A stretch of DNA of 64,000 bases from Octopus vulgaris (taxonomy: Eukaryota), in contig OX597825.1 in assembly GCA_951406725.2 (NCBI GenBank), forward strand, positions 76,074,001 through 76,138,000. The letters are read 5' to 3'. Both the position numbers and the translations under genes were made by a program. The notes beneath the pieces are model-generated. The model saw only the letters and a program-made list of their open reading frames with translations. It was not told the DNA's origin and did no database searches. The stretch's first letter is position 1. Every line of letters begins with the position of its first letter. Below, in pieces: positions 450 through 62,997 of the stretch.

Positions 450-676
450 TTCACTGATCCTCAGAGATTTATCAAAGAAATTGAATCTTAGGCTTGTGAT
501 TTCACTGTCTTCATATGTCTTCAGATTAAAATATCTAACATAGTAATCTCCATATATAGCTAGATGTTTCCAAAACAACTTTCTAGTGGTAGAAGATAAC
601 CTGTCTTGATTTATTTCTACGGTGAAATTTCGTTCATGTTCTTCAGGAGAAATAACTTTCAACTGCCAATCTTTAC
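450..676 (-). CDS. Host gene internal exon (long type, phase 1 to 0), third PLAT-like module: (S)KDWQLKVISPEEHERNFTVEIN...FFDKSLRISE
   Basis: Acceptor tttatatttcag| at 677-678 and donor GAA|gtaaaa at 449-448. Length 227 nt (3n+2), open frame inside ORF 282..662. Phase matches the upstream exon at 15885 (A+GT=Ser). An alternative donor atca|gtgaag a few nt earlier cannot be excluded. Confidence 0.75.
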
Positions 677-8898: not shown

Positions 8899-11656
8899 CA
8901 TCATCATCATCATCATCGTTTAACGTCCGTTTTCCGTGCTAGCACGGGTTGGACGGTTCGACCGGGGTCTGGGGAGCCAGGGGCTGCTCCAGGCTCCAGT
9001 CTGATCTGGCAGTATTTCTACAGCTGGATGCCCTTCCTAACGCCAACCACTCTGCGAGTGTAGTGGGTGCTTTTTACGTGCCACCTGCACAGGTGCCAGA
9101 GGGGTCTGGCATCGGCCAAGATCGGTTGGTGCTTATTATGTGCCACCGGCACAGAAGCCAGTCGAGGTGGTGCTGGCATCGGCCACGTTCGGATGGTGCT
9201 TTTTATGTGCCACCGGCACAGAAGCCATTCGAGGCAGGGTTGGCATCGGTCACGTTCGGATGGTGCTTTTTATGTGCCACCGGCACAGAAGCCAGTCGAG
9301 GCGGCACTGGCAACGGCCACGTTCAGATGGGGCTTTTTATGTGCCACCGGCACAGGTATCACAACTACTGTTTCCATTGATATTTGGTTCGATGTCATGT
9401 ACATGCACTTGACTCGACAGGTCTCCTCAAGCACAGCGAGATGTTCCGGGGTCCAAGGTACTTTGAATGGGCAGGGGGTATGCAGAACTGGTGCCGGAAG
9501 CATCCCGGGTCTTAGTAGTCACAGCACATCTCCAGAGATCCCGGTCCTTCGCCATTGCCTCACTGAGGCCCAACGCTCTGAGGTCATGCTTGACTACCTC
9601 ATCCCATGTCTTCCTGGGTCTACCTCTCCCCCTGATTCCTTCAACTGTTTGAGAGTGGCACTTCTTCACACATCTCTCCTCATCCATCCGCAGTACATGA
9701 CCATACCATCGCAAGCGTCGCTCTTGCACACCGCATCTGATGCTTCTTATGCCTAGCATTTCTCTCAGGATGCTTACACTCTGTCGTGCATTCACACTGA
9801 CATTACACATCCAGCGGATCATGCTAGCTTCATTTCTTTCAAGTCTACGCATGTCATCTGCAGTCACGGCCCATGTTCCACTGCCGTGAAGCATGGCAGT
9901 TCGCACACATGCATCATACAATCTACCTTTCACTCTGAGTGAGAGACCCTTTGTCGCCAGTAGGGGTAGGAGCTTTCTAAACTTTGCCCAGGCTATTCGT
10001 ATTCTAGTGGTGACACTCTCTGAGCATCCACCCCCACTACTAACTTGGTCACCCAGGTAGTGGAAACTATCAACTACTTCTAGTTTCTCCCCCTGGAGTG
10101 TGATGGAATCTGTTTTCTGAGTATTTGTGGTGTCTATTGTCCCTGTGCATCTGCCGCACATGAAAGCTATCTTATCAGTTTACATTCCCTTTGATGTTGC
10201 TGCACCTCTTATGCATCCATAGCTTACACTGGGTGCATCTTATGGAGTTTCTACCTACACCTTTCCTACAACTCGAGCAGGGCCACCTGCCTGATGGGGT
10301 GTGTGTTGAGTTCGCCTTTCTGCATACTATAACTTTGGTCTTCGCTACATTTACTCTAAGGCCCTTTGATTCTAACCCTTGTTTCCACACCCGAAATTTC
10401 TTTTTTAGTTCCGGTAGTGATTCTGCTATGAGGGCCAGGTCATCAGCATAGAGGAGCTCCCAGGGGCAACCTGTTTTGAATTCCTCTGTTATTGCCTGGA
10501 GGACTATGATGAATAAAAGGGGACTGAGGGCTGAGCCCTGGTGTACACCTACTTCTACCCGGAATTCTTCACTATATTCGTTGCCAATCCTAACCTTGCT
10601 GACAGCCTCTCTGTATAGAGCCTGTACAGCCCTTATTAGCCATTCGTCAATCTCCAGTTTACGCATCGACCACCAGATAAGGGATCGGGGGACCCTGTCA
10701 AAGGCTTTCTCCAAGTCCACAAAAGCTATGTAGAGGGGTTTATCTTTAGCTAGGTACTTCTCCTGCAGTTGTCGGACCAGGAATAAAGCATCAGTGGTGC
10801 TTCTACCCAGCACAAAACCGAACTGCATCTCATCTAAGCAAATTCTCTCCCTAATGAGATGGGTTATGACCCTCTCTGTGGCCTTCATCACCTGATCCAA
10901 CAGTTTAATACCCCCGTAGTTATTTCTATCTAGAACATCACCCTTACCCTTGTAGCAGTTGACTATGGTGCTGCTACGCCAGTCATTGGGTATGACTCCA
11001 TTATGAACTACCTGGTTAACAATACGGGTGACTAGGCCATAGCCCACATAACCAGCTGTTTTAAGCATCTCAGCAGTGATACCTGATGGGCCGGGGGCTT
11101 TACCTGGTTTCATATCCTTAATTGCCTTAACTACAAGGGAGCTGTCTATTTGGATAGCTGGTCCCTCTACTGGGTCAACATTTGGCAGGCTCTCCTCCTC
11201 CCATTCATTCTCCACATTCAGCAGTCTTTCATAATGGCTTCTCCAAGCCTCTTTCTTTTCACCAACATTAAAAGCAAGTGCCCCATCATCCATGCGGACA
11301 CATTTCTCTCCTGTAACATCACTATTTTCTCTCACACACTGTCTAGCAATACGAAATACCTCAGTTCTTTGCTCCTCACGTCGCTGGACATTGGCAAACT
11401 TCTTCTTTTCTGCTATATCTTTGGCTATGTATACCTGCCGCCCGGCCTCCCTTTTGGCTACTTGGTACGGTTCCCTGCTACCCCCATCCCTCCAGGCTCT
11501 CCAGGCCTGTTTCTTTGAACTAATGGCTTTGTCTACTGCACTATTCCACCACCACGTAACTCTAGGTCTGGAAGGAACTTTGCACCATCCACAGATTTGG
11601 TCTGTGGCACTCAGCAAGCTGTCCCGTAGGAATTTCCAGCTACCTTCTATGTCCGA
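8898..11656 (-). mobile_element. 5'-truncated RTE-clade LINE, young copy
   Basis: RT ORF 10175-11689 (FVDLEKAFD, GVHQGS, LLYADD) continues after one frameshift into 9427-10161 (RLRWYGHV, RGRGRPRKTW). 3' UTR has tandem repeats and a (GAT)n tail; (TA)n on both sides. Confidence 0.95.
10175..11656 (-). pseudogene. RTE reverse transcriptase (partial ORF2) with PHD-like Cys/His finger
   Basis: RT motifs as above, plus CSSC..CTQC..HKRC..(frameshift)..CGRC. Confidence 0.9.
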
Positions 11657-12244
11657 TATATATATATATATATATGTACTGAACTTCAATTAGAAAATTT
11701 TAAGTTGGAGGGTGGTTTATATAGGGATGATCTTTTATTACTAAGAATTGCGCCAATAGAACACTTGAATTATATAAGAAGAAACTATATAGTTTCTTTA
11801 AAAGATATGGATTAAGTATTACTATATATAAGGAGAACTATAATATTAATTATTTAGATGTTAATTTGAATTTAATAACGGGTAAAACCCAACCATATCA
11901 CAAATTTAATGGAAACCTTAGATATATAAATGCTAATAGTAATCACCCACCCTCAATTAAAAATCGCTGATGAATAACATTGGTAAAAGAATATCATTAC
12001 TCTGTTATCATTTAAAGATTTTCAATGAACATGCACCTTATTATAATGAAGCCCTGCGAAAGGCAGGATATAATAATAATATCAAATTCTTTAATAATAA
12101 TAGTTGTAATTATAATATAAAAGATTATAATAAACATAATGTTAAAAATTATGATAAGTTTTATTTAGATAATTATGTTCTTAAAAATAGATATTACAAT
12201 AATACAAATCATAAGAATAATAATCGAAGAAAAAATAAAAATTT

Positions 12245-15884: not shown

Positions 15885-15978
15885 TGTTCAGGAGTTTACA
15901 AGAATATTCAGGAGAATTTGTCTCGTCTATGTTAAAACAACCATATTCTTCTTCAGGAAGCATTCTTGTCATGGCAAT
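15885..15978 (-). CDS. Host gene exon (short type, phase 0 to 1): IAMTRMLPEEEYGCFNIDETNSPEYSCKLLN
   Basis: Acceptor ataatttttcag|, donor A|gtaaga, 94 nt (3n+1), open frame; phases fit both neighbours. Confidence 0.85.
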
Positions 15979-19128: not shown

Positions 19129-19361
19129 TTTGGATATGTCAATAGATTTGTTTTTGTTTCCAAAGGATATTTCAATCTCACCAATGTTTATATTTCCAAT
19201 ATTGGTAAAAGCAGAAAATGTTGGGAGATAAGCTAACTTTTTGAACATCAGACTTCGTGAAATATTTGTTTCTCTGCCAGTCACTCTAACACACATTTGT
19301 ACTTCTTTTGTATCTCCAACTAGTTCTTGGCGAGAAGTTAGTTCTATTTTCCACACAGTAT
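19129..19361 (-). CDS. Host gene exon (long type, phase 1 to 0): (D)TVWKIELTSRQELVGDTKEVQMCVRVTGRETN...NIGEIEISFGNKNKSIDISK
   Basis: Acceptor ctttcttttctag|, donor AAA|gtgaga, 233 nt (3n+2), within ORF 19006..19500; alternating hydrophobic pattern like PLAT/LH2 beta strands. Confidence 0.85.
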
Positions 19362-20454
19362 CTAGAAAAGAAAGAATAAAATAAACAAAGCAATAAAAAA
19401 GATGGTGTAGTAGTTGTAATACATTTAAAAAAAAAAAGAAATGTGCTTTGAAAAAGGGTGAATTACTTGATATTTTGAGATTTGAGTTATTTCTCAACAA
19501 AAGATGACTGATTTTCTTAACATCAACCTTTTTCTTACCATTTTTCTGTTGAAATACAATGTCTTGGTTTCAATTAATTTTGAGAATAATGAAGAATTTA
19601 TTAAGTAACTTTGTTTCTTTTAAGCATTTATTTGGAATATAAATTAATATGAAATTTTGACAGAAGAGTTTCATTCAGATCACTTTAAAATAAGGAATTT
19701 GTATCATAGAACTTAAATAGTTTCAGGCAGGTTGGTATCAAAAGAATAAAGAAATAAAGAAATGGTAGTTGTAACATTTATGGTTGTGTTATCTTTAGTG
19801 AGTCAAATAATTGATAAAAGAAAGAATTATCATCAACAATGTTTAATAACATTAAACATTTATAATATATGTAATATACAATTTGTTGTTTGTATGTTAT
19901 ATAATGAAATAATGAATTTTATTAGGGAGACCAAACTGAGAGCTTGATAATCTGCTAAACTAAACATTAAAATTTGAAAGAAGAAAATAAACAGCTTTGC
20001 AAGTTTAACTCAGTGTTTATCGAACAAGAGAGGTGCGAAATTTAAGGAGCGACTTGCTAGAATATACATGTAAGTGAGGAGACATAAACAAGAATAGCAA
20101 AAATCTATTACACCAAAAGAACTGGTAATACATACATTACAAGTGTTCTCTGAAGAGAACATAAGATTGATGCATAATTCAACATGAATGTAAAACAACA
20201 TTAAACATCATATAAGGTAAATGAAGGTTTCTGTGGGAACACTAGAAGTTATATTCACTTTGTGAGTTTACATATGTGAGGATGAATTATGATGTTGTCG
20301 ATGTCAGCATTAGATACAGCAAGAGCTGGTAGCAGTGATATCAGCGGTGATGAATTTCATTGTGTTGGAATGTGCAGAAAGTGAGCAAATAGTTTCCTGG
20401 TGCAAACGCAAACTAGACTCCCTAAACGGAGAGAAATTCTTCTATTTAACTTGA

Positions 20455-22860
20455 ACTGGTGCTGAATTCAAATTGGTCCCAAGTCGTTACCTCCTCCACA
20501 AGGGGTAACAACACTTTGGATCTGCTATTTACTGCTTCTCCTGAAACATTTATTAGTGTCACTACTGAAGAACCTTTAGGTGACTCTGATCATTCCATGA
20601 TCATGGCCAACTTGTCTCTGATTGGTTGTAACAAAAACCACAACCATCTTCAAACTGCTCGCTTTGACTGGAATAAAGCAGACTGGAGCTCTTATAGTAT
20701 CGAGCTGCAATTCCCAAACTGGCTTGAATTTTATTCCTCTGGAGATGTGAACACTATACTTCAGAACATTCTGAATTCAGTATAGATGGCATGAGCAGCA
20801 TCAGTACCACGCAAGCACAAAAAACCACCCAATAGTGCAATTTGGGAGACTGCAGCAGTCCGACGTGCCAGGAAAGAATGCTGTAATGCTGAACAGGAAT
20901 ACAAGATGCATAAATCAGAGATCAACAGGAAAAAGCACAATAGATCATCCAACCATCTCAAGTAGGTGACAAAAAAAGGTAGTGCTTGAATTTGAACAGC
21001 GCATAGCAACCAAGCCTGACAGCAAAGTGTTCTGGAAGTATGTACATTCAAAACAGAGACCTCACTCTCCAGCTAGCCCCCTTCACAATCCCCACACAGG
21101 CCAGATTACTGACAATCCCAAAGAATGTGCAGAAATCATTGCTGGATGCTATGCAGGCATCTTTACTGTCGAAGATCAAAATGTTCCATCTCCATCACCT
21201 CTGACACTGGACTCTGTAACCTACAACACCGCCTTCAGAATAAATGTAACTATGCCTCTCTTGGTCTTGATGGTGTTACATAACTACTTCTCAAACACAG
21301 TGGGTACTTTATTCTAAACCAACTTTCACTATTCTTTCAATTCTGTCTTGGCAATGGTGTTACTCCAGAGCAGTGGAAAACGTCCAGTGTTATCCCTCTG
21401 TTCAAAAAAGGTGACCGAACATCACCTGTCAACTATTGCCCTGTCAGTCTTACTAGCTGCATCGCCAAACTGATGGAATCCTGTATCAGGGAAACCCTCT
21501 GGAACTTCTGGAAGTCTCATAGCCTCATCCAGCCGTCACAATTTGGATTTATTCCTAACTCCAGCTGCTGTAATCAACTCATCGAGTTTCTTGAGGACAT
21601 TACCCATAACACTGATCGTGGATCCTGGGTGGATGTTGTTTGCCTGGACTTTGCTAAGGCTTTTAATTCTGTGCCACACAAAAGACTTATGGTGAAACTC
21701 TCTGAAATGGGTGTAAGAGATTATATCTATAACTGGTTGAAGTTCATTATCGGCTGAAAAGAGGTCGTCACAGTTCTAGGAGAGCACTCTTCACACTATG
21801 AGGTGACATCTGGTGTACCACAGAGATCTGTTCTTGGCCCCCTTTTATTTGTTGCATATGTTAATGACATAGATGCCAACTTAAAGAATTCCACACTGCT
21901 GAAATAAGCAGATGATATCAAGCTGTACCTTGAAATAAAGAGGACAGATCCTGTACACTATAGATCTTTATTGCAATCAGAATTGAACACAATGCGAAAG
22001 TTGATCATGGACTGGCAACTCAAGCTGGCTGTGGACAAATGTACCACCATGAATTTTGGGAGGAAAAACCACCCAGCATCTACTCACTCCCTCCACAACA
22101 CTAATCTCAAAAAGTCTTCTTGTGAACATGACCTGGGCATTATTGTCGACAGCGATTTGCGTTGGACAAAACACATTGCTAAAATTGCCAAGAAGGCTGA
22201 GGGTGTCTTGGCATCACTTACTAAGTCCTTTGTGAGTTGATCTCCAGCTATTTATCTGAGGCTTTATATAGCTATGGTGCGGCCTCACCTGGAATTTGCA
22301 TCACCGGTCTGGAACCCCTATCTTGCCCAGGATATTAATCTTCTGGAAACCATTCAGCGACGTGCAACAAAGAGAATAACCTCCATCAGGCATTTGCCAT
22401 ATTCTGAATGCCTTACTTCCCTGGGCATGGATATGTTGAATCTCCGACGTCTGGCAGTTGACTTGGCAGACAGCCATAAAATTAATAACCCTCTTACTAA
22501 CAATAACTCTGAGCACCTTTTCAAACTCCACCTGTCTAACACCCATGGACATGTTTACAAAGTCAGAAAACAGCACAACTCCCACTTTTTCACGCTAAGA
22601 GTTGCTGAAGCAAGGAACAAACTGCCAGCATCAGTTGTTAGTTGTCGGAGCACTGCATCCATCAAAACTTCCATGCTTCCTGAGATTCGCCAGCACTACA
22701 CCTGATTTTCTCCCCTCCATACACATGCAAGCCTGTATCTGACTCATACACTGTTCATTTCCCAGACATTTGTACATAACTGCATCTGTTTTATATGCAC
22801 TTTTGACAAGTTGTGGTGCACCCAAGCACTGTATACAAAAATTTCATTATTATTTCATTT
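20455..22860 (+). mobile_element. Decayed CR1-clade LINE (APE tail + RT)
   Basis: RGNNTLDLLFT and LGDSDH (APE end); QFGF, LDFAKAFNSVPH, ADDIK, VRPHLEFASPVWNPY..LETIQRRATK; short ATTTCATT-type tail. Confidence 0.9.
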
Positions 22861-24110
22861 CAAGTTGCTAGGCTCCACAGTGATATGTAAGGATTTTTCA
22901 TCCATTTTAGAGTATTTGATTGGCTGACCGGTTAATTTGGCATTATTGTCTAAGGGACAAATTGCACCTAAATAGTAACCAATCAGAGCAAATGGTTAAA
23001 ACATGATCTTTATAGCTAAGTGTTCTCTGCTTCATCCAAACAACAACTATAAATAAAAGGGAGAGAGAAGAGTTTGTCATTCATGCTTTTGTCAATCCAT
23101 TCTGCTACTGAATAATGAATCTGTGAAAAGATGGAAGCAAGAATATCTCATATAAATTAAAACACAGTTGTCAGTTACAATAAGAATAATTTCTTGGAGA
23201 GGAAGTGGAGGAAGGAAAATTATCTTCAATAAAATAGTTTTCATTGAGGATCCAAAGACAAAAAGCTTTCAGTAGCAACAAGAAGGGTCTCTACAGAGAG
23301 CTGAATTCTAGGATTTTTGTAAGTCCACCAAAACATTTTAGAATATTCCATGATGTCTTTAGGTGCTAAAATAAAGTTTCTTCTTTGTTTTTCGCTCTCT
23401 CTGCCTCTCATAAACTAATGTCAAAGATAATTAACTGGAAAAAATGTTAGAGGGGTATTATAATAGAGTTCAGGAATCTAATCAAAATAGCTCTGGTTAT
23501 TATTACAAAAAATACTATTATTCATCAGTGGTTTTGACTTTTAAACTTAAATATTCCAGGTTCAGATTTGAGGAAGGTTATTTGGGTGGGTCCTTGGGCA
23601 AATGCCTTCTATGATAGCCTCTGACCAAGCAAAGACTTGAGAGTAGAATTGGTAGACAGAAAGTGAAAGAAAACTGACATATATATATATGTGTATACAT
23701 GTGTGTGTGTGTGTGTGGAAAGGGTGCTTGTGTTTCCTTGTCTGAGCAATAACTGTAAATGACCACCACTGTCATACAAGTGGTGTTCTTCATTTCAAAT
23801 CTGATGTAAGTATATGTCTCACTATTTTTTTTATCTTTTACTTCTTTCAGACACTAGACTGTGGCCATACTGGGGTACCACCTTGTGAAAGTTTAGTTGA
23901 ATAAATTATCTCTAATACTTTATTTATTTTTTATAAGCCTGGTACTTATTTGATAGGTCTCTTTTGCCAAACCACTAAGCCATGGAAATGTAAACATGCC
24001 AACATCAACTGTTGCTGGGGAATGCACACACACACACACACATACATATGTATCATCTTCATCATCATCATCATCACCATTTAAAATGTTTCTCATGCTG
24101 GCATGAGTTG

Positions 24111-24153
<43 letters not shown>

Positions 24154-24792
24154 GTATATGTATATGTATGTATATACATATATACAATGGCCTTCTTTCA
24201 GTTTCTGTTGACCATATCCACTCACAAGTCTTTGGTGTGTCTGAGGTTATAGTAGAAGACACTTGTCCAATGTACCACCGCCATCAAGATAGCTATTGAT
24301 ACACGATCTGTATCCATTATAACCTTCGAACAAGGGAGGTCAGCCGCTTCACACTGCCAGTCCGACAACTACAGACGCGTTTCGGGGTATCATCATCATC
24401 ATCATCGTTTAGCGTCCGTTTTCCATGCTAGCATGGGTTGGACGGTTCTACTGGGGTCTGTGAAGCCAGAAGGATGAAAGGCAAAGTCAACCATGACAGA
24501 ATTTGAACTCAGAAGGTAACGAAATGCCATTAAGCATTTTGCCCAATGTGCTAATGATTCTGCCAGCTTGCTTCCTTCTACTAAGGAAATATTATCATGA
24601 ATGTGGCTTTGGAAACTGGCGTTAATGGGAGGATTTAATTCTTTGTGGTAACATCAATACAGTCATTTATAATTCATTTTGCTCACTCACCTTTTTAACA
24701 ATAACATCAAGTAAAAGTCCCACAGGCAGAAAGGCAGACCTATTTCATAATTTCTAATAAAGTGAAATAAGAAATATCTTTCATCAACTTAC

Positions 24793-24877
24793 CATTTATC
24801 AATGAACACTCGTGGAAAGTATGATCAAGATATAGACAGGAATATATTTTGGAAGTGTTCATGTTCTTCAGTATGAC
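24793..24877 (-). CDS. Host gene short exon, variant A: VILKNMNTSKIYSCLYLDHTFHECSLIN
   Basis: Acceptor ccttttactttag|, donor G|gtaagt, 85 nt (3n+1), open frame. Confidence 0.8.
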
Positions 24878-25354
24878 CTAAAGTAAAAGGAAAATAGAAA
24901 AATGAAAATTATGTGTCCAGGAATTACATGAGTTTGGAGATGAGTCAATTTGTTCTTGATCTTGTAATTACAAAGATGAGAAATATCTAATTTATCCATC
25001 CATTCAGCAATTCTATCTCTACTTCACATAAAGTCTTTTTTTCCCCAAATATTGATAGCTTTATAGTCAAGCAAGACCGTGTTTACAGGAGCTGAGCTGT
25101 TCAGATTTACTCATTAAGAAATTAAAACAACATAGAAGAATTATATAAATTCACAAATAATGGCAGCAGGGAAGGAGCCTGGTCTTGTCATCTGAGTATA
25201 TTCAACTTGAAAATATTACTCTATTCTAAATCATAAATTCATATAGAACTGAATGTAGAAACAGAGGTAGTGATGGAGTCTGGTAGATATAATATGTCTA
25301 CATTTGGGTCGTTTACCTATTATATCCCCTTTTGCGTCTACATAGGCTATCTAC

Positions 25355-25401
<47 letters not shown>

Positions 25402-25999
25402 CATATATACAATGGGCTTCTTTCAGTTTCTGTTGACCATATCCACTGACAAGTCTTTGGTGTGTCTGAGGTTATAGTAAGAGACACTTGTCCAATGTAC
25501 CAGACTGTGAGATTGAACATGAAATCATGTATTTAAGAAGCAAAATTCCAAACACTACCAAGGAAATATTGGCTTCAAATTTTGGCATAAGGCCAGCACA
25601 TTCTGAGGAGGGAATAAGTCAATTACATTGACCCCAGTCTGCAACTGGTACTTATTTTATTGACTCCATAATGATGAAAGGCAAAGTCAACCATGGCAGA
25701 ATTTGAACTCAGAACATAAAGGTAGACGAAATGCCATTAAGCATTTTGCCCAATGTGCTAATGATTCTGCCAGCTTGCTTCCTTCTACTAAGGAAATATT
25801 ATCATGAATGTGGCTTTGGAAACTGGCATTAATGGGAGGATTTAATTCTTTGTGGTAACATCAATACAGTCATTTATAATTCATTTTGCTCACTCACCTT
25901 TTTAACAATAACATCAAGTAAAAGTCACACAGGCAGAAAGGCAGACCTATTTCATAATTTCTAATAAAGTGAAATAAGAAATATCTTTCAGCAACTTAC

Positions 26000-26096
26000 C
26001 GTTTTTCAATGAACACTCGTGGTAAGGAATTCGAGAAGTATAATTAAGATATAGACAGGAATATATTTTGGAAGTTTCCATGTTTTTCAGTGTGAC
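26000..26096 (-). CDS. Host gene short exon, variant B: VTLKNMETSKIYSCLYLNYTSRIPYHECSLKN
   Basis: Acceptor ctattttcctttag|, donor G|gtaagt, 97 nt (3n+1), open frame. Confidence 0.8.
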
Positions 26097-27522
26097 CTAA
26101 AGGAAAATAGAAAAATAGAAAATTATGTGTCCAGGAATTACATGAGTTTGGAGATTAGTCAATTTGTTCTTGATCTTGTAATTACAAAGATGAGGAATAT
26201 CTAATTTATCCATCCATTCAGCAATTCTATCTCTACTTCACATAAAGTCTTTTTTTTTCCCAAATATTGATAGCTTTATAGTCAAGCAAGACCGTGTTTA
26301 CAGGAGCTGAGCTGTTCAGATTTACTCGTTAAGAAATTAAAACAACATAGAAGAATTATATAAATTCACAAATAATGGCAGCAGGGAAGGAGCCTGGTCT
26401 TGTCATCTGAGTATATTCAACTTGAAAATATTACTCTATTCTAAATCATAAATTCATATAGAACTGAATGTAGAAACAGAGGTAGTGATGGAGTCTGGTA
26501 GATATAATATGTCTACATTTGGGTCGTATCCCTATTATATCCCATTTTGTGTCTACATAGGCTATCTACCCTGCCTTTTTATATACCATCTCACCTCTTT
26601 ATCAGCTCTGTCCCATTCATCTCTCTATTACTCACACTCAGTTCACCATTCATTTCTTCTAGTCACTCTGCTCTGGTGTATGTGTAACTAAGGATAGTAG
26701 TGAATCCTTCCTTTTCTTTGTACCAAGCAGCTAATGTAGAGATGCTGTCGGCTTTGTCTAGCCTCTTGTCTTTCAGATACTCACCCTCTCTCCTTACTCT
26801 GTGCCATTCAGCCTGTCTTATGAAAGATGACACTGGAACCATCTAGTCTCAATCCCACCTACAACCATCCCATCATTCCTTTCTATACAGTCACTCTTCC
26901 TTCACTCTTCTCTTCAGTCTTCTCACTCTTCTCTTCACCCACCGATCACTCTTCCTTCTCCTCTTCACCTTCTCTTCATCCACCTTTCTCCTCAGTCTTT
27001 CTGTTACTGCCACCATACACTTCTCCTTTACGCAAACACATCCTAGTTTCTCCCACCACCGCTCTATCATTCACCCGCTTTCTCACATTGCATTAAGTGA
27101 ACAGACACACAGCATAAACTAGGAAATCTCATTAATTTTGGTAATATGACAAAATGCAACTAGCGTACTTTTTAATTGGATTAGCAATTAACTGAAGATA
27201 GCATAGGGTGAAGATGACCTCTTAGTCTTATGAAGAACATGAGAGTCTCCCTATCATGTGTGTGTCCATGTAACTGATTACATTCTGCACAGAGGTGAGC
27301 TAGATATGGTGAGGTTTGTTGACTATTCTTTGCCAGAAAGTTGTCCAGTATCTCTGCACTTTCTAAGACAAGTGGAATGAAATTTCTCTCATCTACAACA
27401 CAAGTAAGGATTGACAAGAAGAACGCCCTGTTGTAAAGCAATGCCTTCGTAATAGGTATTCATCTAACTCATGCAATCATAGAAGAACAAATATATAGCT
27501 AACAAACTGATATATTTAAAGA

Positions 27523-28535
27523 TAGGAATGAAGCCAGTATGATCCGATGGATGTGTAATGTCAGTGTGCATACTCAACAGAGTGTAAGTACCTTGAGAGA
27601 AATGTTGAAACTAAGAAGCATCAGATGTGGTGTGCAAGAGAGATGACTGCGCTGGTATGGTCATGTGACGAGAATGGATGAGGTCAGCTGTGTGAAAAAG
27701 TGTCACATCCTAGCGGTTGAGAGAACCTGTGGAAGAGGTAGACTCAGGAAGACCTGGGATGAAGTGGTGAAGCACGACCTTCGAACTTTAGGCCTCACCA
27801 AGGAAATGACTACTGACCGAGACTTTTGGAAATATGCCGTGTGTGAGAAGACCCGGTAAGCCAAATGAGACCATAATCTCGTGGCCTATGCCAGGAGCGT
27901 AACCAGCCCACTTATGCATACCTTTTCCTTCTTTGGACACTAAAACACTGCTTGCGAAGACCTGTTGAGGCAAGTGAAATCAAAATCAAAATCAAATTCG
28001 ATGACTGGCGTCCGTGCTAGCAGGGTGCAAAGAGCACCATACGAGTGTGATCATTGACAGAGTGGCTAACCAGCTTCCATGCCAGTGGCACTTAAAAGGC
28101 ACCATTCGAGCATGATCATTACCAACGTCACCTTACTGGCACTTGAGCCCCGTACTAGTAGGGTATTAAGAGCACCATCCGAGCGTGATCATTGCCAAAG
28201 CGGCTATCTTGCCTCCGTGCCGGAGGTGCGTAAAAGACATCAATGAAGTGTGATCATTACCAGCATCGCCTTACTGGCACCCGTGCCAGTGGCATGTGTA
28301 AAAAGATTCGAGCAAGGTCGTTGCCAGTACCACCTGACTGGCCCCGTGCCGGTGGCACGTAAAAGCACCTACTACACTCTCGGAGTGGTTGGTGTTAGGA
28401 AGGGCATCCAGCTGTAGAAACTCTGCCAGATCAAGATTGAAGCCTAGTGCAGCCATCTGGTTTGCCAGCCCTCAGTCAATCGTCCAACCTATGCTAGCAT
28501 GGAAAGTGGACGTTAAACGATGATGATGATGATGA
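27523..28535 (+). mobile_element. RTE LINE 3' portion
   Basis: NEASMIRWMCNVSV..RKTWDEVVKHDLRTLGL, UTR repeats, (GAT)n tail into (GATA)n. Confidence 0.9.
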
Positions 28536-28559
28536 GATAGATAGATAGATAGATAATTA

Positions 28560-30120
28560 ACTTCTTTATTGGCCACACAGGGTTTAACACAGAGGGGACA
28601 AATACAATGTCGAGTTTTTCTTTTTGAGGTGGGTGAAAACAAAGTAAAAAAAAAAAAATAGGGACAACGATTGAAAAGGATCGAAATTGCTTGGGATATA
28701 CACAAAAAAAAAATCGAAATAGTACAAAAATTTCCCAAGAAATGGGGAGGTTTATCCGTTGAAAAAAAAACCTACGTAAAGACCATAGTAACCTTGGGAA
28801 ATAATGTCACATATTAACATATTTATTTACAAGTAAGTAATTCTCTGTTTTAAATTTTTTCCAGTTGATAGGATCATGCTCAAGGTGGCTTTGTCATTCA
28901 TACATGCCATCCTTGCTACATTTAGCCATCTGTTTTTGAAACATTCACTAGACAAAACTTGCTTCTCTACTCTCATCTTCCTTTTCAAGTGATACTTGAA
29001 AAAGTTGATGAGAGATTGATCAGATGTGTCCGTGTTTCTCGAGCCATATCTATAGAGCTTATCCTGAATGGGTAGCACTTCTCGGTAGCAATGCCAGGCC
29101 AGAGATCTCTGGAAGTTACCCATAGGTCCCGGCCCGAAAGTTGTCTGCTGGACAGCATGGGCTTGCTTCTCCAGGTGCCAAGCCACAAGCCCACCAACTT
29201 TTCCGGGTTGATTTTCACTCCTGTCATCTCTTTGTAGTCTTTCAGCGTCTCGCCAACCAGCTTGATCTGCTCGTGGCTAGACACTATGACGGTCACGTTA
29301 TCCGCATATGTGGACACACTCGTCCTGCACCCCAGTTCTCGCGGTATACCCCTCAGTGTCAGCAGCTTGCACAGTAGTGGCTTGAGAGTCAATACATACA
29401 GAAGTGATGAGAGGGGGCATCCCTGACGGACCAAACGTGCAATGTCAAAAGGTCTCAATAGATGCCCATTCATGCAAATTACTAAATGGATGCCTCTGTA
29501 CAAAGCAGCCATCTGGCTGCAGAATACAGGACCAAAACCGGCTGCTGAGGACAGCCTTCAAGTATTGATGGTCTACCCTATCGAAAGCTTTGGATTGATC
29601 TAAATTGATCAGGGCCCCACTCATAAAGATTCCTTAAATACTCTGTCTATGATATAGCACATCAGATGGAGGTTTTCATGGATGCTCCAGCCTGGCATGG
29701 TACACTTTTGCACCTTATTGACCAGTTTCTCGATTACATGCACCAACCTCTTGGCCAAAGTTTTCAAGTCTGCATTGAGTAGAGCGATGGGCTGAAAGTT
29801 ATCTATTACGTCCCCCTTGATTGGATCTTTCTTCAGCAGCATTACGGCTCCTCAGCTCACAAAATTGGGGATGCTCCCATTCTACTGCTAGTTGCTGTAC
29901 ACTGCTGCCAAGACATCTCCAAACAAGTCTGGCATACATTTGTAAATCTCATAGGGCAGACCATCCAAACCCAGCAATTTTTCCCTCAAGTATCCTGCCA
30001 TCGCATCCCTCACTTCCACCACCGTGATGGCACCTTCACAGCACTCTGCCTCTCTTGCCAAGAGTCGTGGCAAGCTGTGCAGGTAGACACTGAAGTCCAC
30101 CCTGAGTTCTCGCTCGCCAA
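28560..30120 (-). mobile_element. Decayed L1/Tx1-clade LINE RT fragment
   Basis: GLDGLPYEIY, NFQPIALLNADLK, LDQSKAFDRVDH, VRQGCPLS, YADN. Confidence 0.85.
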
Positions 30121-34622: not shown

Positions 34623-37323
34623 ATCATCATCATTATCATCATCGTTTAGCATCTGCTTTCCATGCTAGCATGGGTTGAACGGTTCAACTGGGGTCTGGGA
34701 AGCCAGAAGGCTGCACCAGGCCCAGTTTGATCTGGCAATGTTTCTACGGCTGGATGCCCTTCCTAACGCCAACCACTCCATGAGTGTAGTGGGTGCTTTT
34801 TACATGCCAGACGAGTCTGGCAAACGGCCACGATCGGATGGTGCTTTTTATGTGCCACAAGCACGTGGGCCAGGCGAGGCTGGCAACGGCCACGAACAGA
34901 TGGTGCTTTTTACGTGCCACCGGCACGAGGCCAGTCGGGGCGGCGCTGGCAATGGCCACGAACTGATGGTGCTTTTTACGTGCCACGAGCACGAGGCCAG
35001 TCGGAGCGGCGCTGGCAATGGTCACGTTCGGATGGTTCTCTTACGTGCCACCGGCACTGGTAAATCAGCTGCAATTTCCATTGATCGATTTCGATTCTGA
35101 TTTTCACTTGCCTCAACAGGTCTTCACAAGTAGAGTTTTGTGTCCCAAGAAGGGAAGGTATGCATAAGTGGGCTGGCTACATCCCATGTAGAAGGCCACG
35201 GGTTATGGTCTCACTTGTCCTGCCGGGTCTTCTCATGCACAGCATACTTCCAGAGGTCGGTCTATAGTCATTTCCTCAGTGAGACCTAAAGTTCGAAGGT
35301 CGTGCTTCACCACCTCGTCCCAGGTTTTCCTGGGTCTGCCTCTTCCACAGGTTCCCTCAACCGCTAGGGTGTGGCACTTTTTCACACAACTATCTTCATC
35401 CATTCTCGCCACATGCCCATACCAGCGCAAACGTCTCTCTTGCACACGACATCTGATGCTTCTTAGGTCCAGCTTTTCTCTCAAGGTACTTACACTCTGT
35501 TGAGTATGAATACTGACATTACACATCCATTGGAGCATACTGGCTTCATTTCTTGTGAGCTTACGCATATCCTCAGCAGTCACGGCCCATGTTTCACTGC
35601 CATGTAGCATGGCTGTTCATACACACGCATCATACAGTCTGCCTTTTACTCTGAGCGAGAGGCCTTTTGTCACCAGCAGAGGTAAGAGCTCTCTGAACTT
35701 TGCCCAAGCTATTCTTACTCTAGCAGTTACACTTTCAGCACACCTGCCCCAGCTGCTGACTTGGTCACCTAGGTAACAGAAGCTATCAACTATTTCTAGT
35801 TTTTCTCCCTGGAAAGTGACAGAAGTTGGTCTCAGAGCATTTTCAGTGTTTATTGTTCCTGAGCATCTGCCACATACAAAAACCATCTTCCTAGTTAGCC
35901 TTCCTTTGACATTGCTGCACCTCTTATGTGTCCATAGCTTACACTTGGTGCATCTTATAGAGTTTCTACCTACACCTTTTCTACAGATCGAGCAGGGAAA
36001 TCTACTTGAAGGCGTTTGTGATTTGTCTACCTTCCTACTTATTAGGACTTTAGTTTTAGCTAGATTGACTCTAAGGCCCTTCGATTCTAAACCTTGCTTC
36101 CACACCTGAAACTTCTCCTCCAGTTCTGATAGTGACTCAGCGATTAGAGCAAGGTCATCAGCATAGAGGAGCTCCCAAGGGCATCCTGTCTTGAATTCCT
36201 CCGTTATTGCTTGGAGGACTATGGTAAATAGGAGGGAGCTGACGACTGAGCCTTGGTGGACCCCTACCTCTACACAGAATTCTTCACTGTACTCATTGCC
36301 AACCCTCATCTTTCTAGCAGCGTCCCTGTACATGGCTCGCACAGCTCTCACTAACCATTCATCTATCCCTAGTATCCTCATTGACCACCAGATACGGGAT
36401 TGGGGAACCCTGTCGAAGGCTTTCTCCATGTCAACAAAAGCCAGGTACAGGGGCTTATCTTTGACTAGGTATTTCTCCTGCAGCTGCCTTACCAGGAATA
36501 TAGTATCAGTAGTACTTTTCCCTGGCACGAACCCAAACTGCATCTCATCTAAACTAACTGTCTCTCTAATTAGTTGGGCTATGACTCTCTCCATAACCTT
36601 CATCACCTGATCCAACAGCTTGATACCTCTGTAATTATTTGTATCTAGGGCGTCACCTTTACCTTTGTAGCAGTTGACTATTATGCTGCTACACCAGTCA
36701 TTGGGTATGACTCCTTCGTGTATCACCTGATTGACTATACGAGTGACTAGGCTATAGCCGACACTACCAGATATTTTGAGCATCTCTGCGGTGATTCCTG
36801 ATGGGCCTGGGGCTTTCCCTGTCTTCATGCTTCTAATTGCCTTAACTACCAAGGAACTGTCAACTCGGATAGCTGGTCCCTCTGTTGGGTCAACATTCGG
36901 TAGACTCTCTTTATCCCATTCATTTTCTTTATTCAGCAACCTTTCATAGTGGCGTCTCCAAACCTCTCTCTTTGCATCCTCGTTTAGCGCAAGTGATCCA
37001 TCTTCCATGCGAACACAATTCTCTCCTACCACATCACAATTCTCTCTCACACACTGTCTTGCAACGCGAAACACCTCCAGTCTTTGGTCCTCACGGCGCA
37101 GAACATCGGCAAATTTTTTCTTATCTGCTTCCCCTCTGGCTAGATAGACCTGTCTCCTAGTTTTCCTTTTGGCAGTCTGATACAATTCCCTGCTACCATC
37201 ATTCTTCCAGTCCTTCCAAGTCTGTCTCTTTTCTCTAATAGCCCTGTCTACAACACTGTTCCACCCATACCTTGGGACGAGAGAGGACTTTGCACCAGCC
37301 ACAGATCTGGTTAGTGGCGCTCA
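34623..37323 (-). mobile_element. 5'-truncated RTE-clade LINE, young copy
   Basis: 561-aa RT ORF 35617-37302 plus in-frame continuation 35233-35610 after a single TGA; 3' UTR repeats and (GAT)n tail. Confidence 0.95.
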
Positions 37324-38558: not shown

Positions 38559-38770
38559 AATTGTGTCTAACCAAAAATTTCCATAGTCAAAACTCGATAA
38601 CTCTATTGTTGAATTTGTATTCATTTCCTTTGGAAGGAAGAATGATATATTTGATGTTCTAGAATTTGTTCTAAATCTTATATAGCGTGTCACATCAGGT
38701 TTTATTTGGAAAGACTTAGGATAAAAGTAATTCATCTCACTGAATAAAACTGCAATGTTCCAACGTACCC
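38559..38770 (-). CDS. Host gene exon (long type, phase 1 to 0): VRWNIAVLFSEMNYFYPKSFQIKPD...IELSSFDYGNFWLDTI
   Basis: Acceptor ctattaccttctag|, donor ATT|gtgagt, 212 nt (3n+2), within ORF 38517..38831. Confidence 0.85.
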
Positions 38771-42078: not shown

Positions 42079-44157
42079 AGATTGGAGGACCCTTTCAAAG
42101 CTAGTTGACCGTACCTTGGTAGATAAAGCAATTAAGAGTATGAAGACAGGGAAAGCCCCCGGCCCATCAGGAATCACTGCAGAGATGCTCAAAATATCTG
42201 GCAGTGTCAGCTATAGCGTAGTCACCCGTATAGTTAACCAGGTGATACACGAAGGAGTCATACCCAATGACTGGTGTAGCAGCACTATAGTCAACTGCTA
42301 TAAAGGAAAAGATGACGCTTTAGATACAAATAATTACAGAGGCATCAAGTTGTTATATCAGGTAATGAAGGTCATGGAGAGGGTCATAGCCCAACTAATT
42401 AGGGAGAGAGTCAGCTTAGATGAGATGCAGTATGGGTTTGTGCCAGGGAAAAGCACCACTGATGCTACATTTCTGGTATGACAGCTGCAGGAGAAATACC
42501 TGGCCAAAGATAAACCTCTGTACCTGGCTTTTGTTGACATGGTGAAAGCCTTTGACAGGGTCCCTCAATCCCTTATCTGGTGGTCAATGGGGAAACTAGG
42601 GATAGATGAATGGTTAATGAGAGCTGTGCGAGCCATGTACAGGGATGCTGTCAGTAAGATGAGGGTTGGCAATGAGTACAGTGAAGAATTCCAGGTGGAG
42701 GTAGGGGTACAACAAGGTCCAGTCCTTAGCCCTCTCCTATTTATCAGAGTCCTCCAGGCAATAACGGAGGAATTCAAGACAGGATGACCCTGGGAGCTTC
42801 TCTATGCTGATGACCTTGCTCTATTTGCTGAGACACTATCAGAGCTAGAGGAGAAGTTTCAGGTGTGGAAAGAAGGATTAGAATCGAAGGACCTTAGAGT
42901 CAATCTAGCAAAAACCAAAGTCTTAGTAGGAAAGCAAACAAATCACAAATCCCACCAGGAAGATGACCTGCCTGATCTGTAGAAAAGTTACAGGTAGAAA
43001 CTCCATAAGATGCACCTGATGCAAGCTATGGACACATAAAAGGTAACACAATATCAAATAAAGGTTAAGTGGGAAGACAGTGTTTGTGTGTGGCAGATGC
43101 ATAGGGGCAATAAACACCAAAGATGTACAGAAAACAGATTCTATCACATGCCAGGGGGAAAAATAGAAGTAGTTGATAGCTTTCATTACTTAGGTGCCCA
43201 AGGTAGTAGCTGAGGTGGATGCTCTGAGAGCATAGCTGCTAGAATAAGAATATGCTGGGAAAAGGTCAGAGAGCTCCTACCTCTGCTGGTAACAAAGGGC
43301 CTCTTGCTCAGAGTGAAAAGTAGACTGTATGATGCATGTGTGCAAACAGCCATGCTACATGGCAGTGAAACATGGGCTGTGACCACTGAGGACATGCACA
43401 AGCTTGCAAGAATTGAAGCCAGTAAGCTCTTCTGGATGTGTAATGTCAGTGTGCATACATAACAAAGTGTAAGCGCCATGAGAGAAAAGTTAGACATAAT
43501 AAGCATCAGATGCGGTGTGCAAGAGCAACGACTGTGCTGATATGGTTATATGTTAATTATGTGTGGGGACAGCTATGTGAAGAAGTGTCACACCATAACA
43601 GTGGAGAGAACCTGTGGAAGAAGTAGACCCAGAAAGACCTGGGATGAGGTTGTGCAGCTCAACCATCAAACGTTGGGCCTTACAGAGGCAATGACATGTG
43701 ACCAAGACCTTTGGAGATATGTTGTGCTTGAGAGGACCTGGCAAGCCAAGTGAGATTGTAGCCATGGCTGATGCCAGTGTCACATAACTAGTGAGCCCCT
43801 CTAAAAGTACCCTTCAATTGTTGGGCAATATGCTGTGTTTGAGAAGACCTGTTGAGTCAAGTGAAATCATAGCTGTGGCCAATGCCAGTGCTGCCTGAGT
43901 GGCACCCATGCTGGTGGTACGTAAAAAACATCAATCGAGCGTGGTTGATACTAGTGCCACCTGACTGGCTCCCATGCAAGTGACATGTAAGAAGCACCCA
44001 GTACACTCTTTGACACTAGGGAGGGCATCCTGCTGTAGAAACTTTTCCAGATCAGATTAGAGCCTGATGGAGCCTCCTAGCTTACAAGTCCTAAGTCAAA
44101 CCATCCAGCCCATGCCAACATGGAAAACAAACATTAAACGATGATGATGATGGTGAT
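42078..44157 (+). mobile_element. 5'-truncated decayed RTE LINE
   Basis: KTGKAPGPSG, KAFDRVP, LLYADD with stops; UTR and (GAT)n tail; (TA)n on both sides. Confidence 0.9.
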
Positions 44158-53167: not shown

Positions 53168-55101
53168 CCAGGAACTTAAATCTCCAAACAAATATGCAGC
53201 AAGCTTTTCGACAAACGCTCTCTAGGAGCCCATGAATGGCACAAAACTGTCTCTCAATATGCGTTGACGTCAGGGTGGGTGAAAGCAGACGAAAAAGTCC
53301 GTTGAGATAATTCGGGGTCAACTCCCGGTTAGCATTGGGAAGGGGAAGAATTACAGAAAACCAAAGAGTTTGAATATATTCTGTATAACTAGTGTTAATA
53401 TTCGAATTGTTTAAAGAATGAATGCTATCGTATTTGGGTGTGAGAAACTACCTACATGTATGTGTGTGCGCGCCTATGTATGTGTGGCAGTATGTTTAGG
53501 AAGGAGCTAGGCAGAACTATATAGCGGCTATTAATGGTCAAGCAGCCGATAGAAACCTGTGTCTGTGTGTTCGTCTGTGACCAGTTTATAGAGAGATGAC
53601 TTGCCGACAAGGGGCGTATAATCCCTGATAGTGTTTCTAAATAATTAGCAGTTCATACGCTAAAGGGGAGTAATTTCCCCTTTCAAATTTAATTCAAAAT
53701 TTTTTCAAATTTTTTTCCAAAATTTTTTCTTTTCTTAGGACATCAAGGTGTTAATTATCTTAGACTTCAATTATATGCAAGAAATGTATGCGCCGCCAAT
53801 GCGGACATCTAAAAGAGTTTTGCAAAATCGAGTTAACTAATTGCCCTCGGGTGAACAAAATGTGAAAAAGTTCAGAGTTGCAAAGATTACAGATTCTTTT
53901 ACCTCTATCAAACGGTACAGACACCGATAAAATCGACCATTCCAGTCTAAAGGCTGTATTCGCGTTCTTCAAACGCCATACTAATTTACTTAGTCCGGTC
54001 GCGTGTTGTTTTCCAAAATCGCGAAACGTTGTGAAGTGGTTCGATATTCTGGCGGCCAATTTTGATGATGACGCTCCGATATACAAGTAGACATCTGATT
54101 CAGTATAAACTCTGCATTGGTAAATGGCGTTTCTAATCTTGGAATTACTAGATAAGAACCTTATTCTATTGGGATTGGCTTCCGATATTAATACGGCGTT
54201 CTTATTACTATGATGATTGTAAGAACTACGGCTGTCTACGACATTATACACCCCACTATCAATACTATTTAATGGAATATCACCTGTATATTCCCTGCCA
54301 CTGAGATCACTGTGGTTGCTAATGTCCGTGATGCTACTGTTGTTAAACCCACTGCTAAAATTGTTATTGGAACTCCCTACACTAATGACTCGGACAGTGC
54401 TCTCATCCCTATTACCATTACTAACGTTAATGCCACCACCATTGCTCTTAACCTTATTCCTATTATTAACTCCATGGCTGGTATGGAGATTGCTAATCTC
54501 TGTGCCGGTTCCATTATCATTATTATTATTATTAATACTGCACGTTGTTCTGGCATTAGACGGAGCTGCGTCTCCGAACGTGGGTGAGAGTGTCGTATTA
54601 AGCAGCCTATTGTTATGGGAGGAAATTATCTGTGAGAGATTTTTAGTATTGGAGAAGGCTATCCTAACTTTGTGTGAGTTAACAGTGGAGTAATATCTGG
54701 AATTTCTGGGAAAATTACTGGCAATGGCTTGGCGAAACTGCAGGGCTTTTTAAGTCGATGGAGACACCACCACCTAACCCAAGACTGAAGAAATTTGAGG
54801 ATGACTTATACATGTAGGTAGTTTCTCACACCCAAATACGATAGCATTCATTCTTTAAACAATTCGAATATTAACACTAGTTATACAGAATATATTCAAA
54901 CTCTTTGGTTTTCTGTAATTCTTCCCCTTCCCAATGCTAACCGGGAGTTGACCCCGAATTATCTCAACGGACTTTTTCGTCTGCTTTCACCCACCCTGAC
55001 GTCAACGCATATTGAGAGACAGTTTTGTGTCATTCATGGGCTCCTAGAGAGCGTTTGTCGAAAAGCTTGCTGCGTATTTGTTTGGAGATTTAAGTTCCTG
55101 G

Positions 55102-59482: not shown

Positions 59483-59570
59483 ATTTTTCTAAATTCACCT
59501 TCTTGTAGTTACAAGCTGATGAGCATCTGCCACCATACTTTACTGGAAGATCTGTATTTTCAACATGTGC
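59483..59570 (-). CDS. Host gene exon (short type, phase 0 to 1): AHVENTDLPVKYGGRCSSACNYKKVNLEK
   Basis: Acceptor ctattttattttag|, donor T|gtaaga, 88 nt (3n+1), two Cys like the other short exons; phase fits the 38770 exon. Confidence 0.7.
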
Positions 59571-61407: not shown

Positions 61408-62997
61408 TCATCATCATCATCGTTTAACGTCCGTTCTCCATGCTAGCATGGGTTGGACGGTTCGACCAGGGTTCTGGGAAGCCAGAAGGCTGCACCAGGC
61501 TCCAGTCTAATCTGGCAATGTTTCTACAGCTGGATGCCCTTCCTAACGCCAACCACTACGTGAGTGTAGTGGGTGCTTTTTACGTGCCACCTGCACAGGT
61601 GCCAGGCGGGGCTGGCAACGGCCACGGTCAGACTGGTGTATTTTATGTGCCACCGGCACGGAAGCCAGTCGAGGCGGTGCTGGCATCGGCCACGAGTCGG
61701 ATAGTGCTTTTTACGTACCACCAGACCAGGGATCCTGGCTGGTTCAATTCGATTTCGATTTCGATTTCGCTTGCCCCAACATGTCTTCACAAGCAAAGGG
61801 GGTTGGCATGGGTGCCTGTCGTACGGTCGCATTGGAGTATTTTACGTGCCACGGCCGCGAGTCGGATAGTGCTTTTTACGTACCACCAGGCCAGGGATCC
61901 TGGCTGGTTCAATTCGGTTTCGATTTCGATTGCCCCAACATGTCTTCGCAAGCAAAGGGGGGTTGGCATGGGTGCCTGTCGTACGGTCGCATTGGAGTAT
62001 TTTACGTGCCACGGCCACGAGTCGGATAGTGCTTTTTACGTACCACCAGGCCAGGGATCCTGGCTGGTTCAATTCGGTTTCGATTTCGATTGCCCCAACA
62101 TGTCTTCGCAAGCATGGGGGGTTGGCATGGGTGTCTGTCGTCGGGTGAGGTTCTATATCGATTTCGCTTGCCTCAACCGGTCTTTTGCGTCCAAGGGGGG
62201 AAAGGCATTCATAAGTGGGCTGGGCTCACTTGTCCTTCCTGGTCTTCTCACGTACAGAATATTTCCAAAGGTCTCGGTCGCTGGTCATTTCCTCAGTGAG
62301 GCCTAAAGTTCGAAGGTCGTGCTTCACCACCTCGTCCCAGGTTTTCCTGGGTTTACCTCTTCCACGGGTTCCCTCAACTGCTAGGGATTGGCACTTTCTC
62401 ACACACCCATCTTTATACATTCTCGCCACATGACCATACCAGCGCAATCGTCTCTCTTGCACACCACAACTGATGCTTCTTAGGTACAACATTTCTCTCA
62501 AGGTGCTAACGCTCTGTCGAGTATGTACACTGACATTACACATCCATCGGAGCATACTGGCTTCATTCCTCACGAGCTTACGCATGTCCTCAGCAGTCAC
62601 GGCCCATGTTTCGCTGCCATGTAGCATGGCTGTTCGTACACACGCATCATACAGTCTGCCTTTTACTCTGAGCAAGAGGCCTTTAGTCACCAGCAGAGGT
62701 AAGAGCTCCCTAAACTTTGCCCAGGCTATTCTTATTCTAGCAGTTACACTTTCAGCGCACCCACCCCCACTACTGACTTGGTCACCTAGATAACGGAAGC
62801 TATCAACTACTTCTAGTTTTTCCCCCTGGAAAGTGACGGAAGTTGTTTTCTGCAGATTTTCGGAGGTTAATGCTCCCGAGCATCTGCCACATACAAAAAC
62901 TATCTTCCCAGTTAGCCTACCTTTGACATTGCTGCACCTCTTATGTGTCCATAGCTTACTCTAGGTACATCTTATGGAGTTTCTACCTACACCTTTT
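61405..62997 (-). mobile_element. 5'-truncated RTE LINE with expanded higher-order 3' UTR repeats
   Basis: ORF 62226-62690 (RLRWYGHV, RGRGKPRKTW), ~170-bp unit repeated about three times at 61690-62140, (CAT)n tail, (TA)n flanks. Confidence 0.92.

Follow-up and report, generated by a model that had tools for sequence, protein, structure and literature searches.

A tandem pair of diverged short exons in a positively selected octopus gene family, and its possible origin by exon capture

Mutually exclusive splicing of tandemly duplicated exons is secured in several ways. For human clusters, the available part of the survey by Hatje et al. (PMC5740500) gives frame-shifting lengths in 377 (60%), steric interference in 9% and U2/U12 incompatibility in 0.79%, and the accessible portion of another study (PMC8373072) states that tandem exon copies mostly end up constitutively spliced together. 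An exon pair in Octopus vulgaris, referred to as A and B, shares with mutually exclusive exons born by tandem duplication the adjacent homologous exons, the equal phases and a length not divisible by three. However, no U2/U12 or steric block is present, the copies are not sisters, splicing has been seen for the B type only, and the pair appears to be limited to a haplotype rather than conserved.

A similar excess of exon over intron divergence has been reported for the opsins L and M of gibbons, where, as far as the available part of PMC3213168 goes, it is maintained through conversion of the introns. Like the opsins, the octopus locus combines near-identical neighbours, exons more diverged than introns and mosaic site patterns, but the two variants here lie within one gene, and the family shows dN above dS instead of purifying retention of fixed differences. 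MHC class I genes resemble the gibbon opsins in their exon divergence above that of introns, accompanied by intron conversion. Paired immune receptors (PIR/LILR, KIR and Siglec pairs) form tandem clusters, with shared ectodomains, differing tails, tyrosine motifs, positive selection and conversion. The same features are found here: the host gene and P76.33 (a paralog named, like P75.59, after its position on contig C12) carry near-identical ectodomain regions on different tails, and tandem clustering, tail tyrosine motifs, positive selection and conversion are shared as well. In contrast to the paired receptors, no Ig homology emerged for these proteins, and the tail motifs (YENI, YAMP and YTQP) include no ITIM or ITAM that we recognised as canonical by consensus.

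The window analysed is a stretch of 64,000 nucleotides (assembly GCA_951406725.2, contig OX597825.1, positions 76,074,001 to 76,138,000), and all coordinates below refer to it unless a contig is named. Its features, in the order in which the gene is read, are as follows.

59483..59570, minus strand: short two-Cys exon, phase 0-1, which closes domain 1
38559..38770, minus strand: upstream exon encoding the body of domain 2, phase 1-0; differs from P76.33 by 20 nonsynonymous and 0 synonymous changes; donor joint seen
25357..26571, minus strand: unit A, extra copy of the ~1.2-kb unit, placed upstream; a paralog-like mosaic with a (TA)n tract at its end
26000..26096, minus strand: exon A (97 nt, phase 0-1), whose two Cys stand 13 residues apart and which carries the sequon NYT; splicing not seen
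25350..25410, no strand: duplication junction, where the (TA)n tract meets unit B at its first base, with no homology
24113..25356, minus strand: unit B, resident copy of the unit; in two other DNA-like runs its start immediately adjoins the upstream flank
24793..24877, minus strand: exon B (85 nt, phase 0-1), whose two Cys stand 9 residues apart and which carries the sequon NTS; the copy taken by the public protein model; B-type exon spliced from 38559 through B to 19361
24278..24465, minus strand: B-only segment of repeat tail and unique sequence, replacing ~163 nt common to A and both paralogs
19129..19361, minus strand: downstream exon encoding the body of domain 3 (PLAT-like by prediction), phase 1-0
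15885..15978, minus strand: short two-Cys exon, phase 0-1, which closes domain 3
450..676, minus strand: body of domain 4 (PLAT-like by prediction), frame open, omitted from the public model

A sequence-only reading of this DNA had described a ~1.2-kb tandem duplication with two copies of a short coding exon (26096-26000 and 24877-24793). The duplication is present, though interrupted by an unrelated segment: 26571-25666 aligns with 25356-24466 (94.6%, with gaps) and 25502-25357 with 24277-24132 (94.5%), and the ~163 nt (unit A) and ~188 nt (unit B) between these blocks are unrelated. Both copies possess, as that reading held, an intact pyrimidine-rich AG acceptor (18 of 20 pyrimidines), a GGTAAGT donor cut after its first G, and a phase of 0 to 1; the splice sites are equally good, with acceptors alike in strength and GTAAGT donors in both. 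The hand counts were reproduced: 9 of 85 aligned exon nucleotides differ (7 nonsynonymous, 2 synonymous), in addition to a 12-nt in-frame indel, against 17 of 800 in the intron (10.6% versus 2.1%; Fisher p = 3.7e-4, a single test picked post hoc after inspection of the data). Both Cys are preserved in each exon, and the sequon moves, NYT belonging to the copy at 26096 and NTS to that at 24877. The frame from 38770-38559 to 19361-19129 is kept with A alone or with B alone, and joint inclusion gives a stop within the second copy, which confirms that only single inclusion can be productive; skipping of both copies leads to an early stop too.

Known forms of exclusion were searched for at the pair. 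Neither steric nor U2/U12 exclusion was found, the intron between the exons measuring 1,122 nt and both copies being flanked by GT-AG introns with GTAAGT donors. A check for pairing of the docking/selector type yielded weak, repeat-derived inverted pairs, of which one (242 nt, 76%) has only A inside it and another (107 nt, 74%) only B. Given this intron length, the GT-AG introns and the weakness of the inverted pairs, no known pre-splicing exclusion is evident.

The host gene is one of a family with at least 15 members in the genome (at least 16 matches in each of two genome searches). A profile search over 1.84 billion representatives returned 29 proteins; the 16 proteins whose source names were checked and 10 from another search all come from Octopus or Argonauta, and judged by these named proteins the family appears confined to octopods. 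Title-level literature listings, six LOC identifiers among the queries, held no description of the family. P76.33 and P75.59 are 89-98% identical to the host gene over long stretches and carry one unit each. Between the host gene (15,400-64,000 and beyond) and P76.33 (C12:76.32-76.42 Mb), ~80 kb of ectodomain region is shared at 89-98%, with 98.1% in one 20-kb block; TM and tail exons differ, and P76.33 is without domain 4. This pattern suggests ectodomain exchange or a chimeric origin.

Exon duplication recurs elsewhere in the family. In P76.33, the short domain-1 exon is found in two copies 17.6 kb apart (C12:76384481-76384397 and 76366881-76366794), the upstream of which (85 nt) has acquired two compensating frameshifts, so that it is open and of the same phase, with scrambled sequence; it is likely a later stage of such an exon duplication. 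The public model of P76.33 (P0004) joins both short-exon copies by way of another donor. P84.05 (C12:84046186-84050146) has an in-frame duplication of the domain-1 closing exon and the domain-2 body, 82-89% alike and included in protein P0022, and in the P79.83 region the domain-3 body exon occurs twice, 9.4 kb apart (C12:79834256 and 79843685). In P75.59 (C12:75.537-75.597 Mb), no exon is detectable past the domain-3 body as far as 75.64 Mb; transcripts of its type nonetheless occur in run X15, and it may be a truncated or secreted form.

Comparison of the four units revealed that the copies are not each other's closest relatives. Eight informative sites among A, B, P76.33 and P75.59, with one homopolymer and one indel edge left out, group A with B once, A with P75.59 five times and A with P76.33 twice; on these site patterns, A and B are not sister copies. 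Twins of a simple recent duplication should share many sites, the paralogs having 9 and 12 private intron sites. In the intron, A is 1.9-2.2% from B, P76.33 and P75.59, and those three are 3.2-3.5% apart. The nine exon differences between A and B comprise, among the four copies, three shared with paralogs, four confined to B, one confined to A and one with three states. Some of B's residues also occur farther afield: the probable orthologue from O. bimaculoides has its Ile, Asp and His, and a protein of O. sinensis has its Phe. The exon differences are likely older than the duplication. No exact donor of A was found in the assembly, where the best other copies reach 96-98% identity, and this is the chief weakness of a capture account. 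Differences at six scored sites, as well as a 6-nt deletion, are private to A; the donor would thus be an unsampled allele or copy, or A would be older.

Selection was assessed at the level of the pair and of the family. Between A and B, pS is 0.103 and pN 0.108, giving a pN/pS of 1.05 that is imprecise because of the small synonymous count (2 of 19 sites). The host gene differs from P76.33 by 47 nonsynonymous and 5 synonymous changes over five exons (ratio 2.7, p = 0.024) and, over four exons, from P75.59 by 35.5 and 2.5 (ratio 4.1, p = 0.008); one branch is common to both tests, and six distant paralogs stand outside these totals. Exon A against the paralogs gives nonsynonymous-to-synonymous counts of 3:2 and 2:1, and the upstream exon alone 20:0. 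By these counts, positive selection is real at the family level and strongest in the neighbouring exons, and two upstream exons also diverge more than their flanks. The diversifying selection proposed by the sequence-only reading is supported for the family (47:5 and 35.5:2.5) and not supported between A and B (1.05). The excess of exon over intron divergence likely reflects old selected exon variants that have persisted while introns were shuffled and homogenised by conversion.

Assembled contigs from other individuals (Logan) provided information on the splicing of the exon and on carriage of the tandem. Usable rows on the exon were present in 6 of the 24 runs listed, and X1, X4, X7, X10, X15, X16 and X17 were examined. 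The RNA status of a run is a guess backed by joints at GT-AG exon ends, none being recorded as RNA; the contigs drop rare variants and may merge variants of different copies, X1 was read to ~76%, and contig depth was not taken as copy number or expression. The joints 38559-24877 and 24793-19361, which had been proposed for mapping, occur at GT-AG ends in X4, X7 and X17 (three of the four runs of the first survey). A 139-nt contig of X17 contains the end of the upstream exon, B with the 12-nt deletion and one other letter, and the exact start of the host gene's downstream exon. X16 carries a B-like exon joined on both sides and without the 12-nt deletion, which is missing from the B-type exons of X4 and X7 as well; the rows of X15 fit paralog P75.59. 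In total, a B-type exon lies between the flanking exons of the host gene in four of five RNA-like runs, from four studies and under two organism labels. In these runs, B-like exons are the expressed resident form. No joint of A occurs among the 15 of 163 joints listed, from runs without confirmed carriage of the tandem, so A may still be used; joints of A or a junction missing from contigs are no proof of absence.

The two DNA-like runs speak to the arrangement of the units. In both X1 and X10, a contig has the first 108 nt of B with 0 other letters, preceded not by (TA)n but by flank-type sequence, so these haplotypes carry B without A in front. The junction A-(TA)n-B was seen in neither run, and the tandem consequently rests on one assembly. 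In X10, contigs have no listed difference from B across most of the flanking intron and an exon with several substitutions and 15 inserted nucleotides, which suggests, with the proviso that contigs can merge close copies, that the exon is hypervariable among alleles.

The account that we favour, and hold to be somewhat probable, is that the tandem is a haplotype variant made by exon capture, in which A was copied, already diverged, from a related gene or allele to a place ahead of the resident B. Briefly, a break at the start of B would have been repaired through one-sided invasion of a ~97%-identical donor, synthesis would have proceeded over 1.2 kb as far as the (TA)n tract, and the new end would have been rejoined to B without homology, yielding flank-A-(TA)n-B. 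The sequence-only reading had instead seen a simple recent tandem duplication followed by rapid selected divergence into a new isoform switch. The gap between exon (10.6%) and intron (2.1%) divergence, the nonsynonymous nature of seven of nine changes, the intactness of both copies and the positive selection on the family all speak for it, but pN equals pS, A and B are grouped at just one of eight informative sites, three of the nine differences are shared with paralogs, and most differences are found elsewhere, be it in paralogs, in other individuals or in O. bimaculoides. As a statement on timing this view is largely refuted, and as a whole we consider it highly improbable.

Two further explanations concern the assembly and the age of the event. 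Two alleles of one diploid, or B and a collapsed paralog, could have been written in tandem by the assembler; B is single-copy against the flank in both DNA-like runs, neither of which showed the junction, polymorphism at the locus is high, the paralogs around it are 94-98% identical, and the junction falls at a microsatellite. On the other hand, there is no N gap (zero N in 20000-30000), the assembly is contiguous, with 227 contigs altogether and one of 89.6 Mb, the neighbouring gene P76.33 has a real-looking duplicate of the equivalent exon, and the junction is without homology. False assembly joins usually need overlap. An artefact of this kind is judged unlikely. It is quite unlikely, too, that an older tandem duplication was overwritten piecemeal in A by later paralog conversion and that other haplotypes lost A or never had it. 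Conversion has evidently taken place, all three groupings of the four copies being represented, and the private changes of A and the replaced segment of B would suit a greater age; against this, variants found only in B, at 21-45 nt from where the unit starts, occur immediately next to the flank under two organism labels, and loss of A by deletion would need a crossover inside the first ~21 nt.

The protein in which the pair lies was characterised by homology and structure prediction. The downstream exon is 100% identical to the predicted O. vulgaris protein CAI9731345.1 (P0002), the model of which takes exon B. Mapping of homologues gave a predicted signal peptide, four domains of ~100 residues, a TM helix and a tail that contains tyrosine motifs; past the left end of the window are the exons for TM helix and tail, and past its right end those for the signal peptide. 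Over the tail, O. bimaculoides LOC106873224, the likely orthologue of the host gene, agrees at 69%. The product is predicted to be a single-pass membrane protein whose extracellular-facing ectodomain consists of four beta-sandwich domains, and AlphaFold models (pLDDT 82.7 and 72.5) contain beta-sandwich domains. The suggestion of an extracellular recognition or effector protein thus agrees with the predicted orientation; given its TM helix and cytoplasmic tail, the protein hardly resembles a secreted venom effector.

PLAT/LH2 domains occur in lipoxygenases, pancreatic and lipoprotein lipases and RAB6IP1, and further in polycystin-1 and LOXHD1. The predicted models of domains 3 and 4 match nine PLAT-bearing entries with Z 7.6-10.0 and an rmsd of ~3-4.7 Å over 95-114 residues, the next rows having Z of at most 6.1, and both domains are predicted to be PLAT-like. 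In contrast to the PLAT/LH2 proteins, there is no Pfam match here, and prediction places the domains outside the cell, on a protein that crosses the membrane once. At the curated cut-off, Pfam gave no match, to PLAT or otherwise, for single exons or for the family proteins searched (0 of 10); a PDB sequence profile search had no match below E = 0.13, and an ESM Atlas search no usable one. Foldseek rows for KIR, PirB and ferlin were dismissed as multi-domain noise on account of low TM (~0.12-0.18 for PirB/KIR) and rmsd above 15 Å. Domains 1 and 2 received no fold assignment. Domain 2, which holds the A/B exon and was modelled together with other domains, has best structural rows of Z at most 5.3 and a profile comparison with domain 3 at 1% probability. 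Profile-profile comparison of the four domains was not significant; their exon phases and Cys pattern suggest a common origin. In the predicted structure, the A/B exon supplies the closing beta-hairpin, or last three strands, of domain 2, with the 12-nt indel in the turn between the two Cys-bearing strands, and the Cys-to-Cys stretch of this hairpin measures 9-15 residues in 29 of 32 aligned proteins, namely those with both Cys.

Other observations were made on the gene and its surroundings. The public model (330 aa) passes over the exons for domain 4, TM and tail, all of them open and intact in the genome, and is likely truncated by annotation. A conserved exon-like block of 89 nt just outside the window was excluded, being absent from homologous proteins. 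A minisatellite with a 26-nt period and ~33 degenerate copies (921-1772) lies immediately upstream of the domain-4 exon. Two pairs of near-perfect inverted repeats (441-446 nt, 98-99%) at 53021-53461/54808-55248, with an ORF of 329 aa between the arms (53760-54749, minus strand), and at 44279-44724/45134-45579 are likely young transposon insertions. Long reverse-transcriptase-like ORFs in introns (9427-11689, 35233-37320, 42080-43753 and 62226-62960) are, judging by their motifs, presumably of LINE type, and remnants near 46.4-49.3 kb and 41.3-41.8 kb we take to bear helitron-like and mariner-like motifs, respectively.

For a haplotype formed by exon capture, many transcripts with both exons are to be expected because the splice sites are equally strong and neither a steric nor a U12 block exists. 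These would be lost to NMD, presumed to operate in octopus, and the surviving mRNA would contain A or B. The outcome is likely an either/or filtered by frame on one haplotype, unregulated and leaky, rather than an evolved switch, although an isoform switch is possible. That the haplotype has gained a pre-selected alternative to a hypervariable disulfide hairpin in an octopod-only family of recognition receptors with PLAT ectodomains, with both isoforms made, exclusivity supplied by frame and NMD, and the nascent mutually exclusive pair still segregating, is a tentative and rather doubtful proposal. If carriers do not splice both, the tandem is likely a hypomorphic structural variant, and the case cautions that exon divergence above intron divergence in tandem copies need not imply selection after duplication.

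If carriers do splice both, the locus would offer a rare view of how a pair of mutually exclusive exons is born. It would mean that such pairs can begin with useful differences ready-made, taken from alleles or paralogs, and that exon capture converts allelic or paralog diversity to splice diversity in a single step. Events such as the tandem duplication of exons and mosaics made by conversion are already known; what would be new here is the capture of a pre-diverged exon in a positively selected octopod family. The host protein is a putative receptor, and, whichever way the exon pair is used, the family is a candidate for non-self, self or gamete recognition in octopus.
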